From a virus (taxonomy: Duplodnaviria; Heunggongvirae; Uroviricota; Caudoviricetes), in IMG/VR virus record IMGVR_UViG_2703718806_000011, positions 1 to 8,790 of that record: DNA of 8,790 nt. One strand, written 5' to 3'. Under the pieces are notes generated by a model. The model ran no database searches and had not been told where the DNA came from. It saw nothing but the letters and a program-made list of their open reading frames with translations. Shown here one piece after another: positions 2,920 through 7,560 of the stretch (position 1 is its first letter; every line of letters starts with the position of its first letter). A program made the position numbers and the translations under genes.

Positions 2920-3177
2920 TTAAAACGGTATGTTATCCCCGTACGGATCATCGTTACCCGCCACGCTCACCAGTTCGCCTTTGTGGTGTTTTGCCAGTGC
3001 GTCGGCCTGTCTGCCAAACGCCAGGACGGATAACCACATCGTCGCCGTTCCGTCATCGGCCTGGCTGCACGGCAGGGGGATAGCCATACCCGCCATCGCC
3101 ATTTGTGTACCCTTGCTGGTGGTCTTTAACTGTGGGTCAGCCACCAGCCGCCCGTAAGCGGCTATCTGTGCTGTCAT
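2920..3177 (-). CDS. Truncated SSB-like OB-fold protein, 85 aa, ending in an SSB-type acidic C-terminal tip (...DDPYGDNIPF)
   Basis: The N-terminal part resembles the start of E. coli SSB (IAAYGRLVADPQLK vs VILVGNLGQDPEVR; WLSVLAFGRQADALAKHHKGELVSV vs [26 protein letters not shown]), and the last residues DNIPF match the SSB tip DDDIPF. Start overlaps the upstream gene stop (ATGA). Confidence 0.6.
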   Translation of the reverse strand: MTAQIAAYGRLVADPQLKTTSKGTQMAMAGMAIPLPCSQADDGTATMWLSVLAFGRQADALAKHHKGELVSVAGNDDPYGDNIPF

Positions 3178-3443
3178 GATTCCACCTCTCCGGTTTTAAT
3201 GTTGATGGTTGTTACCTGTTCCGCTTCGGCAATCTCCCGTTCTGTCAGCGTGGCAAAGTTTGCCGCCGCTGTGGTCATGAATGCGCTTATCAGTTCGGGA
3301 TGTTCCTTCGCGTATCCTTCCCCCGCGTGGCGGTCTATTACCCTGATTGCTACCTTTAAGGCGTGCTCTGTCATGTCTAACGCTTTATATTTTGGCTCTG
3401 TTCTGTCTCTGCGCATTTTGGTTATCTCCTCACTCATGCTCAC
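3174..3443 (-). CDS. Hypothetical protein, 89 aa (GTG start at 3443; alternative ATG at 3437)
   Basis: Plausible composition; GAGG lies 7 nt upstream of the GTG, inside an ori iteron; coupled to the downstream SSB-like gene by a 4-nt overlap. Confidence 0.5.
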   Translation of the reverse strand: MSMSEEITKMRRDRTEPKYKALDMTEHALKVAIRVIDRHAGEGYAKEHPELISAFMTTAAANFATLTEREIAEAEQVTTINIKTGEVES

Positions 3444-3630
3444 TTTTGCGCCTCACTTTTTAAAGCGTCTCGCTTCGTCTCACTTGATATTTTTGATGTT
3501 TTTATGTGCATGTTTCATAAGGATTTTTTACTCCTCACTTTTTGGGGTATATATACGTTGAAAAGTGAGGAGTTCAGGGGGTTTTTCGTGCAATTCCTCA
3601 TTGTCCTCACTTTTGCGCCTCACTTTTTAC
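3429..3630. repeat. Putative origin of replication: iterons of consensus CCTCACTTTT around an AT-rich core
   Basis: The 23-bp unit CTCACTTTTGCGCCTCACTTTTT occurs at 3439-3461 and 3606-3628. A perfect 12-bp inverted repeat CTCCTCACTTTT (3531-3542) / AAAAGTGAGGAG (3561-3572) flanks a TATATATA spacer. Partial copies at 3429-3435, 3477-3486 and 3596-3603. AT-rich stretch 3481-3530. Lies immediately 3' of the replication gene. Confidence 0.55.
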
Positions 3631-5036
3631 AGAGGGCCTACATCATCACCGTCGATATAAATAACCCCGTCTTTTTCCAGCTTGCGTAGCCAGCGGCTGA
3701 AGTTTTTCATTTCGTACCCCAGCTTTTTCATATCGTCACGTAACAGCGGGATCGTGCACTTGTCGCCGTGCTGTGTGCGTGACCGGATACATCCCCATAG
3801 CGCAGCATGATTCTCCGTCTTGTTGCCAGCCTCTTCGATGCGCTCCAGTTCAACGGGAGGACGCGGCTTATCCACCACCACCAGCGACGTGATTAACTCC
3901 CCGTCAGCGTCGGTAAAAAGCTCCACCACCCGCAAATCATAGGCAGCCTCTTTGAGTTCCTCCGCGTCCTTCATTTTGGTGCATGAGATAACCAGCGCTT
4001 CGCTTCCTGCGTCCTCCCTGCGTATCCGGTATTCAGCGTCCAGTGATGCACGAAATGCACTGGAACCACGCGCCCCCTTTGTTTCATCCTTGCCGGAATG
4101 GTGAACCACCAGCACCGTAGCCCCTGTGCGCCGTTTAAGCTCGTCACAACCACGGATAAATGCCCCCATGTCGCGGGAGTCATTTTCATCATTGCCGCCA
4201 AAGCAACGCGCCAGCGTGTCCAGAATAATCATGCGAACAGGTTTACCCGTTTCCCTCTCCACCTGACTGGCAGCAATAACCAGTTCATCAACATCAAGCG
4301 GGACAGCCGGAAAGATGGGACGGTTTACCAGATACAGATTTTTCACCTGCTCACCGTGCACAACCTCCCAGGCTTTTACACGACGCGGAACGCCGATACC
4401 GCCTTCACCAACCACATAGAGAACAGCGCCATGCGCCACCCTGCGGCCTCCCCACTGGCGGCCCGTGGAAACGTGACACGCCCACGATCCGGCAAGGAAT
4501 GATTTATAGGAACCGCTCGCCCCGTATATGCTGCAAAGCGACGATGCCGGAATAATCCCCTTTACCACGTAATCAAGCTGTGTGTCGTATCCGGTAGATC
4601 CAACGCTCATCGGTAGCTTGGTTTTTCGCTGGGGGATTTTTTTCATGACCAGGCTTTCCCCGCGTTCCCATGCCTCCCTAAGCCGTGGAAGCTGGTCGCT
4701 CCATTCCTCCAGCAATTCGAAATTTTCAGAAAGTAGCCGCGCCTCCTGGACTCCGGCGATCGCCAGTTTCGTGGCGATGGTTAACAGCTGCGGCTCTTCA
4801 ATATTTCCGGCGCGTATCACCGTCGCCCTGTATCGCCCATCATCAACAATCTGGAGGTTATCCAGTTCGCTTAACTGATAACGCCCCAGATAAACGGGAG
4901 GGACTGGATCGCCTGCTTTTTTGGCCTGTGCAATGATGTAATGCTCTGCGAATGAGTGAGCATCAATACCCGCAAAAATAATCGCATCGGTGTATTTATC
5001 TTTCGGTAATCGTTTTACGTTCGGTGCCAGTTTCAT
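3627..5036 (-). CDS. Replication protein with a RepA/DnaB-like (RecA-fold) ATPase domain, 469 aa; primase/helicase-type satellite replication initiator
   Basis: P-loop-like IYGASGSYKSF, Walker B-like RMIILD, and HHSGKD, as in RepA-like helicase domains (from memory, unverified). AGGGG lies 6 nt upstream of the ATG at 5036. Start overlaps the upstream gene stop (ATGA). Confidence 0.8.
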   Translation of the reverse strand: MKLAPNVKRLPKDKYTDAIIFAGIDAHSFAEHYIIAQAKKAGDPVPPVYLGRYQLSELDNLQIVDDGRYRATVIRAGNIEEPQLLTIATKLAIAGVQEARLLSENFELLEEWSDQLPRLREAWERGESLVMKKIPQRKTKLPMSVGSTGYDTQLDYVVKGIIPASSLCSIYGASGSYKSFLAGSWACHVSTGRQWGGRRVAHGAVLYVVGEGGIGVPRRVKAWEVVHGEQVKNLYLVNRPIFPAVPLDVDELVIAASQVERETGKPVRMIILDTLARCFGGNDENDSRDMGAFIRGCDELKRRTGATVLVVHHSGKDETKGARGSSAFRASLDAEYRIRREDAGSEALVISCTKMKDAEELKEAAYDLRVVELFTDADGELITSLVVVDKPRPPVELERIEEAGNKTENHAALWGCIRSRTQHGDKCTIPLLRDDMKKLGYEMKNFSRWLRKLEKDGVIYIDGDDVGPL

Positions 5037-6508: not shown

Positions 6509-6552
6509 TGTACGTACGTAACGGAAATGATAATAGGAGTTACGTACGTACA
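6509..6552. promoter_or_regulatory. Palindromic operator: perfect 14-bp inverted repeat TGTACGTACGTAAC / GTTACGTACGTACA, arms separated by 16 bp
   Basis: Arms at 6509-6522 and 6539-6552. Each arm contains the self-complementary 10-mer TACGTACGTA, with copies 30 bp centre to centre. Overlaps both the early promoter and the RHH translation start. Confidence 0.6.
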
Positions 6553-6558
6553 TGTCAA
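6530..6558 (-). promoter_or_regulatory. Near-consensus sigma70 promoter for the minus-strand early operon
   Basis: On the minus strand: -35 TTGACA (6558-6553), 17-bp spacer, -10 TATTAT (6535-6530). Predicted transcription start near 6523, about 100 nt upstream of the first operon gene at 6419. Confidence 0.55.
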
Positions 6559-6743
6559 CATTAAAGCGCGATAAATCGCCACGCGGTGAGGGATGGTCTC
6601 CAACCTTCCAAATCAGAATCAGTAAAGAGCTACGCCAACAAGTAAATGAAGCTGCAACTTCTGACGGTCTAACCCTTGGTAACTGGTTTAAAGAATTAGC
6701 CAGGGCAGAACTAAAGCGGCGCGGCATAGAACCCAAAGGGTAA
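6552..6743 (+). CDS. Ribbon-helix-helix (Arc/CopG-like) DNA-binding protein, 63 aa; candidate repressor of the early operon
   Basis: Strand-helix-helix pattern FQIRISKELRQQVNEAATSDGLTLGNWFKELARAEL. The only convincing plus-strand gene, divergent from the early operon. AGGAG lies 12 nt upstream of the ATG, which sits inside the operator and the spacer of the opposing promoter. Confidence 0.6.
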   Translation: MSTLKRDKSPRGEGWSPTFQIRISKELRQQVNEAATSDGLTLGNWFKELARAELKRRGIEPKG

Positions 6744-6867: not shown

Positions 6868-7007
6868 TGCCTGAAAAACCCCAATTTTGTTGTTTTTCAG
6901 TTTCACCAGGGCGAACGAATCCCCGCCCACGTTCGGGCGCATATTCAATCTTCATGGTTATATCTCTGTATTAGTGGATGTGTGGCGACTGTGTGCCGCC
7001 AGTCTTT

Positions 7008-7196: not shown

Positions 7197-7247
7197 TATT
7201 GCCCCCTTTCGTTTCTTAAAGAGTCATCAGGTGTCTTATTGTGTCGT

Positions 7248-7276
7248 ATTGTTCCCGCTAGTGTGGTGAATGGCAA
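7248..7276 (-). promoter_or_regulatory. Candidate sigma70 promoter for alpA
   Basis: On the minus strand: -35 TTGCCA (7276-7271), 17-bp spacer, -10 AACAAT (7253-7248). TATTGT-containing direct repeats at 7231-7255 overlap the -10 and start region. Confidence 0.3.
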
Positions 7277-7345
7277 ATGTTGATGTCGTATGGTTTACAG
7301 AAAGAGGAATAATCAGGATAAAATCATTTAAATTCATGTTAATAC

Positions 7346-7378
7346 AAAGGCATAAAATCTTGTTTTATGCCTTTTTTC
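7346..7378. terminator. Hairpin terminator between int and alpA, probably bidirectional
   Basis: GGCATAAAA-tcttg-TTTTATGCC (7349-7371), followed by TTTTTT on the plus strand and by TTTGTATT on the minus strand. Confidence 0.45.
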
Positions 7379-7468
7379 GCACGCTTTAACGCGTAATTCG
7401 CTAATGTATAAAAAACCAGTTAACCAATAAAAATCAGTAACTTATAAATCTGTATTCTTTTTGGCCTC

Positions 7469-7518
7469 TTGTTCGTGATTGTGTCACGTTGTTGCACATT
7501 GTTTCACGTTGTATCTGT
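7469..7518. repeat. Five direct repeats with exact 10-bp phasing (TTGTnnCACG-like) just 3' of int
   Basis: TTGT at 7469, 7479, 7489, 7499 and 7509; units TTGTTCGTGA, TTGTGTCACG, TTGTTGCACA, TTGTTTCACG, TTGTATCTGT. Confidence 0.4.
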
Positions 7519-7560
7519 GCACTTATCCAGTATGTGCATACTGAAAAAACACGAAAAAAA

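Follow-up and report, generated by a model that had tools for sequence, protein, structure and literature searches.

The stretch of DNA analysed here (the window, 8,790 nucleotides) is a phage-inducible chromosomal island (PICI) of the Gram-negative, capsid-forming layout, similar to EcCICFT073. Its genes are all encoded on the minus strand in the order int, alpA, a DUF4222 gene, a RepA-type AAA_25 helicase gene and a ClpP-protease/HK97-capsid fusion. The int start codon is the final base of the window, so the att arm falls outside. A 364-bp spacer separates int from alpA. On the sense strand of these genes the order is the int stop, a palindrome, an array of short repeats, a TATAAG hexamer, a conserved block, a hairpin, two weak promoter-like sites and alpA. 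In window coordinates the features are as follows.

8790 to 7561, minus strand: int, encoding a P4-type tyrosine integrase with an N-terminal arm-binding domain (Pfam PF13356, Arm-DNA-bind_3, and PF00589)
7528 to 7543: inverted repeat CAGTATG-tg-CATACTG, a perfect 16-mer CAGTATGCGCATACTG in most relatives, including L307
7469 to 7518, plus strand: distal array, five head-to-tail 10-bp units TTGTTCGTGA TTGTGTCACG TTGTTGCACA TTGTTTCACG TTGTATCTGT
7441 to 7446, minus strand: -10-like hexamer TATAAG without a -35 match, 22 nt past the final array unit in the sense direction
7396 to 7420: conserved block between the array and the putative terminator, ACTGGTTTTTTATACATTAGCGAAT on the sense strand
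7346 to 7378: stem-loop with a perfect 12-bp stem AAAGGCATAAAA / TTTTATGCCTTT, followed by TTTTTT on the plus strand and TTTGTATT on the minus strand
7315 to 7342, minus strand: second promoter-like site TTAACA-N16-TATCCT, a consensus match only, just downstream (sense) of the putative terminator
7248 to 7276, minus strand: putative promoter-like site TTGCCA-N17-AACAAT, 9 of 12 matches, with its -10 within the proximal array
7229 to 7268, plus strand: proximal array in the orientation and phase of the distal array, with exact TTGT at 7239 and 7249 and degenerate aGGT at 7229 and TAGT at 7259
7196 to 7008, minus strand: alpA, encoding a 62-aa winged-helix protein (Pfam PF05930 at 5e-18), the proposed binder of the array

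The int-alpA spacer is found at 80-99% identity in about 710-723 of 5426 complete E. coli genomes, among them EcCICFT073 (L010), the experimentally studied prototype. The identical integrase protein is encoded on contigs L304-L307, in which the island adjoins a cupin gene, with genes for a glycerate kinase and a permease alongside. The L307 spacer differs from that of the window by 1 base. In L304, int and the distal array are identical to those of the window, the sequence from the conserved block through the terminator aligns as L005-like, and the match to the window returns over the proximal array and the alpA start. This mosaic structure implies that the array travels with int and that the recombination joints lie between the array and the terminator. 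In the late region of the window a single 629-aa ORF (372-2261) encodes a fusion of two domains, a ClpP-type prohead protease and an HK97-type major capsid protein. In NZ_CP027340 (L001), which over the int-proximal part is nearest to the window in DNA identity, protease and capsid are encoded by separate genes and a primase takes the place of the RepA helicase, which implies that late and replication modules have been swapped. A terminator-like hairpin with a T-run on the plus strand (6982-7004) ends just before the 3' end of alpA and would halt transcripts of the small plus-strand ORFs (6552-6743 and others) that converge on alpA.

The distal array lies between int and alpA, 49-92 nt from the int stop (7561). 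Exact TTGT occurs on the plus strand at 7469-7472, 7479-7482, 7489-7492, 7499-7502 and 7509-7512, as the preliminary description had it. The unit consensus is TTGT-T-y-C, which reads as ...ACAA on the sense strand. Four or more TTGT at 10-bp spacing on either strand arose in 0 of 2000 dinucleotide-preserving shuffles of the window (a run of three arose in 7), and any 4-mer repeated five times at period 10 in 0 of 500. Tandem Repeats Finder reports a period-10 array at 7479-7512, and the distal array scores 35.6 bits in a position-weight scan for which the 95th percentile of shuffles is 11.7. A search of Rfam returned sub-threshold matches only, none covering the array. Five TTGT at 10-bp spacing were found in at least 119 stretches of IMG/VR; the matches listed are mostly unrelated tandem repeats, and 5 among them are PICIs of this family. 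A tandem repeat was also noted in an unrelated element on an IMG/VR contig (L152, 4170-4263). It consists of ten tandem CTTGTCCCTG copies next to TGTGTAGTC and comes after a terminator-like hairpin. A 62-aa ORF without a Pfam match follows about 150 bp downstream, and a P4-type integrase gene (301-1521) is about 2.6 kb away.

The inverted repeat described beside the array, 3' of int, is present, at 7528-7543 and not one base further on at 7529-7544; it lies 18-33 nt from the int stop. Perfect 7-nt inverted repeats with spacers of 0-4 nt number five in the window against 2.5 expected, and 15% of shuffled 364-bp spacers hold an equally good one. By itself the palindrome is weak evidence, within chance. 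It is absent from L003, L010 (EcCICFT073), L014 and L071, and a sixth TTGT unit occupies its place in the EcCICFT073 subfamily. The pairing of array and palindrome is consequently not a conserved module, and a role of the palindrome as a conserved operator was rejected on these same two grounds. It was also rejected as an intrinsic terminator, being followed by A-runs on the plus strand and by GATAAG on the minus strand and not being returned by a terminator scan.

The stem-loop at 7346-7378 looks like a bidirectional terminator that separates the distal array from alpA. The alignment shows it to be conserved, always 120 bp from the array; the terminator scan missed it because the stem has too few G-C pairs. 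Beside it lies a small dyad (7381-7394), which is ACGC-TTTAAC-GCGT in the window and CTCTT-TA-AAGAG in L005 to L008. Both forms are symmetric and the central TTTAA is conserved; the dyad could be an RNA hairpin or a dimer-binding site. The block at 7396-7420 is strongly conserved, even in the diverged L003, L010, L014 and L071. The TATAAG hexamer at 7441-7446 is a candidate activator-dependent promoter, and the diverged subfamilies have TAATAA or CATAAC at 21-23 nt in its place. Consensus promoter scans returned two weak candidates on the sense strand and none in the arm, which does not decide the array's promoter. At the promoter-like site of 7248-7276 the sequence TGGCAAA is invariant among relatives. 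The start codon of alpA is 43-60 nt downstream of the proximal array, which is separated from the distal array by 220-230 bp and has one extra 10-bp unit in L002-type relatives.

Conservation was assessed in an alignment of nine relatives integrated at tqsA, roxA and yifB, and in a wider comparison of 17 relatives. In the nine, the TTGT columns are held while the six bases between them change freely. Variable columns make up 1 of 20 in the cores and 11 of 30 in the linkers (p=0.016), and the linkers vary more than the rest of the spacer. TTGT is invariant across the 36 distinct units of the 17 relatives. In the logo of these units the TTGT positions carry about 2 bits, C+6 carries 1.1 bits and all others at most 0.7 bits. 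The array has five or six units in the 17 relatives save L008 and L014, in which one core carries a single-base change. Gain and loss always proceed in exact 10-bp units (L007 has gained exactly one), and the array is kept in subfamilies with diverged flanks. Phasing in related elements was what the preliminary description had asked to see conserved, and it held: the cores are fixed and the indels are of 10 bp. Among distant AlpA homologues from 47 species, the strict criterion of an exact 4-mer in a run of at least four units found none beyond Shigella, so the array is established only for enterobacterial PICIs.

The repeat recurs at the attachment arms of relatives. In L307, the 92 nt that lead up to the int ATG run TTGTTTCAGC TTGTTTCACG TTGTAGCGCT TTGTGCAACG and then GGTGTAGTTAAT GGTGTAGTCAAT; the int-side arm reads as array units (2909-2948), a doubled GGTGTAGT and the int ATG. 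The att core of NZ_CP027340 is TGCTGTTAT, and both of its arms carry a co-oriented module in which three or four ACAA units at 10-bp spacing come after a doubled (GTG)ACTACACC. A second block of repeats, degenerate, is found closer to the core. The module of doublet and array occurs again in the far arm of another island. In L307, L001, L009, L119, L010, L015 and L078 the arm repeat lies between the integrase arm-type site and the core. The doubled 12-bp ACTACACC motif that adjoins the arm arrays matches the annotated integrase arm repeats of P4.

A position-weight scan of the whole NZ_CP027340 island identified five places only. Three of them are the internal array and two blocks in the int-side arm; the other two are in the far arm and, as a three-unit array, ahead of the capsid operon. 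This last array (L001 2610-2639, sense strand) has the units TTGTTCGTGG TTGTTCCACG TTGTTCACTG. A perC-like gene and its terminator come just before it, and the major capsid gene is about 210 bp further downstream. Its position suggests that AlpA may also act directly on the late operon. The window has the same terminator (about 2880-2905) without an array after it. A 15-nt sequence TTGTTTCACGTTGTA is common to the arm and internal arrays, which have opposite orientations. The array was initially placed downstream of int rather than at the attachment site. The internal copy is real, but the att arms of relatives carry the same arrays, so it is an addition and not a displaced site. Its location is also less unexpected than it was first thought to be, since operators of recombination directionality factors (RDFs) are common away from att (186 Apl, P2 Cox, P4 Vis).

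The arms contain two kinds of repeated element, of which one should be the integrase's and the other the RDF's. Three families of islands allow the two to be told apart, a small sample (n=3 families). Family A has TTGT arrays and an AlpA recognition helix RSCRYRLEK. Family B (next to cspD) keeps the ACTACACC doublet and an integrase N-terminus that is 79% identical; its arrays become CGAAC/GTTCG, and its AlpA is 56% identical with the helix RTTRYEMEK. In family C (next to rcnR) the integrase N-terminus is 61% identical and the doublet is changed to ACCACACA. This family shares the recognition helix and CGAAC arrays of family B, so that B and C together combine GTTCG with RTTRYE(M/L)EK. Across the three families the doublet appears to track the integrase N-terminus and the 10-bp array the AlpA recognition helix. 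This covariation and the recurrence in the att arms support the earlier suggestion of an excisionase or AlpA-type array. The arm-binding protein, which had been named as another candidate, is disfavoured because the motif does not follow the N-terminal domain of the integrase.

One member of family B counts against AlpA as binder. The AlpA proteins of L013 and L011 differ in one residue, yet L013 has GATATT three times 3' of int (3103-3130, at 10-bp spacing) where L011 has CGAAC motifs; an AlpA-type array 3' of int is hence not universal. GATAT motifs are found near the alpA start in both L011 and L013 (about 2810-2835), and the GATATT/GATAT motifs of family B may be sites of a second DNA-binding protein. 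Family C, with the gene order int-DUF6387-alpA, has a G+C-rich hairpin with a T-run that abuts the alpA start codon (L012 2790-2815, L016 3133-3165, L017 3145-3175). The 3' stem includes a GAGGG ribosome-binding site and the loop contains two CGAAC/GTTCG motifs 10 bp apart, inverted in L012 relative to L016 and L017. This hairpin may combine a terminator, a structure that sequesters the ribosome-binding site and an AlpA site.

The single-sequence model of AlpA is a winged helix (pLDDT 87). The closest solved relative is PDB 8c3t, the excisionase of the GIsul2 transposon (E 2.6e-6, 39% identity, TM 0.79-0.86), and the model aligns with the RdfS and TorI excisionases at TM 0.63-0.66. In sum, five direct repeats lie one helical turn apart in an element that encodes a small winged-helix RDF. 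They recur in the att arm of relatives, have a low-information core with varying linkers, and covary with the RDF. The TTGT array departs from arm-type sites in its 10-bp period, its five units and a motif that does not track the integrase N-terminus. Counting against AlpA as binder, helper-embedded PICIs have AlpA and an integrase arm doublet that abuts the int ATG, with no visible 10-bp arrays; their arms contributed no covariation information. The literature searched contained no binding experiment with any PICI AlpA and no paper mapping AlpA DNA sites in PICIs. The array conforms to a class of RDF operator that is already known and that is, in that literature, new for PICI AlpA. On this comparative evidence we consider it probable (about 0.65) that the array is a cooperative AlpA-binding array that serves as an internal regulatory site.

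Published reporter data can be read against this arrangement. Fillol-Salom et al. reported that AlpA in trans activates a PalpA-lacZ fusion, that helper phages raise alpA transcription, and that over-expression of AlpA leads to int-dependent excision with Pint unchanged. Mapped from the published primers, the AlpA-activated EcCICFT073 reporter pJP2038 is L010 3187 to 2732. Its insert starts with the final 32 bp of int and runs through the six-unit array, the terminator and the proximal sites into alpA, of which it includes 57 bp. TTGT occurs in this fragment 12 times and ACAA once, and the ACTACACC doublet is absent; if AlpA acts directly, the fragment's sole repeated candidates are the TTGT units. 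Excision that depends on int without a change in Pint fits a direct role of AlpA as the RDF. That Pint is unaffected is, on the other side, odd if AlpA coats the arm next to int.

RDFs are described as binding head-to-tail on repeats one turn apart, with weak affinity for single sites, strong cooperativity between neighbours and bending of the DNA, and their arrays are reused at promoters far from att, as by Apl, Cox and Vis (PMC7498355). By extension, AlpA would be both the RDF or excisionase of the island and its master activator, and the TTGT units would be its head-to-tail monomer sites. We infer that AlpA binds a single unit weakly and binds cooperatively along units one helical turn apart, bending the DNA. 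The unit would serve in four settings per island, namely the two att arms, the alpA promoter region and the array past the int stop. Excision would be directed by AlpA bound at the att arms, where the units adjoin the doubled ACTACACC sites of the integrase. The internal array and the in-phase proximal sites would form a cis element for feedback of AlpA on its own operon. This could operate by two routes: in one, the array would activate the promoter 22 nt downstream that lacks a -35; in the other, it would form a loop with the proximal sites at a distance of 220-230 bp. The inverted orientation of the internal array and the terminator before alpA count against a simple model of alpA activation. 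The overlap of the proximal sites with a -10-like element would suggest repression, not the activation observed. A more specific proposal makes the array the point at which the long-sought induction switch of Gram-negative PICIs receives its input. A promoter without a -35 (TATAAG, 7446-7441), activated by the RDF, would produce a short transcript that has to pass the 7346-7378 terminator to reach alpA, and it could also be fired by helper excisionases that cross-recognise TTGT, much as P2 Cox fires P4 PLL. In this version the array and the inverted arm array could also bracket int in an AlpA-mediated loop. We regard this fuller version as unlikely.

The TTGT units might instead be arm-type sites of the integrase N-terminal domain, with the internal cluster regulating alpA or the int 3' region and the ACTACACC doublet being the AlpA site. 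The integrase does contain an Arm-DNA-bind_3 domain, and the units lie in both att arms, as arm-type sites do. The lambda arm sites P'1-P'3 are likewise adjacent direct repeats. For the doubled motif of helper-embedded PICIs, Tommasini et al. left the choice between Int and AlpA open. Against this assignment, however, the annotated attP arm repeats of P4 are doubled 12-bp units and not 10-bp arrays, and CP4-57 has a 12-bp doublet just upstream of intA. The doublet moreover follows the integrase N-terminus and the array follows AlpA, and the AlpA-responsive reporter has TTGT arrays and no doublet; we find the exchange of roles distinctly unlikely. A docking site for a helper-phage protein, such as a helper excisionase, that switches on alpA and may share the site with AlpA is about as improbable. 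Helpers activate alpA from the array-containing fragment by an inducer that was not named, and cross-talk of a PICI AlpA-type protein with phage Xis has been reported. P4 has three 10-bp-phased TTAAAG units upstream of vis (9176-9205), which we take to be Cox boxes since they match the P2 consensus. No sequence evidence points to a phage binder, however, and the motif covaries with the island's own AlpA. AlpA alone, with no phage, activates the fragment and induces the island, and lambda and phi80, which are dissimilar helpers, would have to share a specificity.

An origin by duplication of an att arm is possible in view of the 15-nt sequence shared with the arm array, and a paired element follows the array as it does in the arm. 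That the array is a decaying relic of such an arm or of an earlier junction, now functionless, is nevertheless very unlikely. Its cores are invariant and its linkers more variable than the remaining spacer, its unit number changes in whole units only, and it persists where the flanks have diverged, in a spacer kept in at least 710 of 5426 complete E. coli genomes. Of the two possibilities put forward at the outset, an internal regulatory site is favoured over a relic by this pattern of invariant cores and varying linkers. Least probable by far are replication-origin iterons bound by the RepA-type helicase or an initiator. Short direct repeats at 10-bp spacing are iteron-like, and the ori and crr of P4 use short repeats. 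A separate cluster with another motif (CCTCACTT-type, 3439-3632) nevertheless lies where PICI origins do, directly downstream of the helicase gene, and TTGT recurs at the att arms and the alpA promoter and persists in islands with another replicase (a primase in L001 and L010).

That cluster immediately follows the RepA-type helicase gene (3627-5036, minus strand), contains no TTGT array and is probably the replication origin of the island. Its direct repeats are of the CCTCACTT(TT) type, with 18-nt copies at 3444, 3526 and 3611 and tandem CGTCTCACTT at 3466-3485. A loading site for an antiterminator of the Pseudomonas AlpA type (Q) was also considered and rejected, because a PDB sequence search (E<=1) gave no match between the Pseudomonas protein and the winged-helix AlpA of the island, and the array does not lie between promoter hexamers. 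The Pseudomonas AlpA has a Q21-like eight-helix fold (PMC9371919), and the name that it shares with the 62-aa PICI AlpA is a coincidence.

AlpA is the master switch of Gram-negative and capsid-forming PICIs. These islands mobilise virulence and defence genes, and work is under way to engineer them into delivery vehicles. The operator code proposed here is TTGT-T-y-C repeated every 10 bp, of which sister families have a GTTCG variant. It predicts four or five AlpA clusters per island, sets AlpA sites apart from integrase arm sites and proposes the integrase as the binder of the doubled att motif, the question left by Tommasini et al. With defined 4-bp cores, the autoactivation of AlpA, its excisionase role and the input of helper phages become directly testable by mutation.

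Among known systems, Apl of coliphage 186 binds seven direct repeats between pR and pL, and further sites at attP, with a spacing of 10-11 bp; its binding is cooperative and of low specificity and needs at least three adjacent sites (PMC7498355). The PICI arrangement resembles it in having a small RDF with direct repeats both at att and in a far-off regulatory region, here five units off att and three or four per arm. The Apl operators, however, lie between two face-to-face promoters that Apl represses. In the PICI, the array sits past the 3' end of int with a terminator downstream of it, the start of alpA is 270-315 bp away, and AlpA is reported to have a net activating effect. In sequence, Apl is an outlier and does not belong to PF05930, and binding in the PICI is predicted.

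KplE1 (CPS-53) TorI has five sites in two blocks in the int-side arm of attL. Each site is 8 bp long with GTTCG, GATCG or GTCCG as its core, neighbouring sites are separated by 2 nt, and the sites overlap the int promoter region (PMC2951348). The 10-bp period is the same, the arrays of family B and C PICIs share the GTTCG/CGAAC core, and the fold of TorI resembles the AlpA model (TM 0.63). TorI has no detectable sequence similarity to this AlpA, however. Its known sites are at attL only and repress intS, and no internal array 3' of int has been described.

The P4 system has the same integrase type, with doubled 12-bp arm repeats that flank the core on both sides. The "attP arm sequence repeats" of the P4 record are these doubled units (ATGCCCCCA), and the record describes Vis (ORF88, AlpA-type) as "excisionase and transcriptional regulator". 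From the int-side doublet to the core, P4 (L181) has two unannotated blocks of three 10-bp-phased repeats, at 3984-4013 and 4046-4075, with the motifs GGAC/GGAA/GGAC and TTGGA/TCGGA/TTGGA. Vis Box I and II have reportedly been mapped between the int-side doublet and the core, and we presume that the two blocks are these boxes. Vis is also said to act at late promoters. P4 differs in pairing a ATGCCCCCA doublet with GGA-type repeats where the PICI pairs ACTACACC with TTGT. It also has no array in an int-alpA spacer, and its int and vis genes lie far apart. The original AlpA element, CP4-57, has no TTGT arrays, only a 12-bp TAGGCCCA doublet.

The upstream activating element of P4 PLL, in which phased direct repeats are bound by P2 Cox, is a likeness of another kind. 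It responds to the RDF of the helper and not to a protein of the satellite, its motif is another, and no terminator stands between it and the regulated gene. The helper-embedded PICIs of Tommasini et al. (2023) carry a doubled tgTGTATTGCa (x2) in attP, for which no 10-bp arrays were described and the binder was left open. That motif resembles the ACTACACC doublet in its 12-bp period and in its co-oriented copies in both arms, about 80-90 and 130-145 bp from the core. The present reading differs in giving the doublet to the integrase and placing AlpA on a 10-bp array distinct from it.
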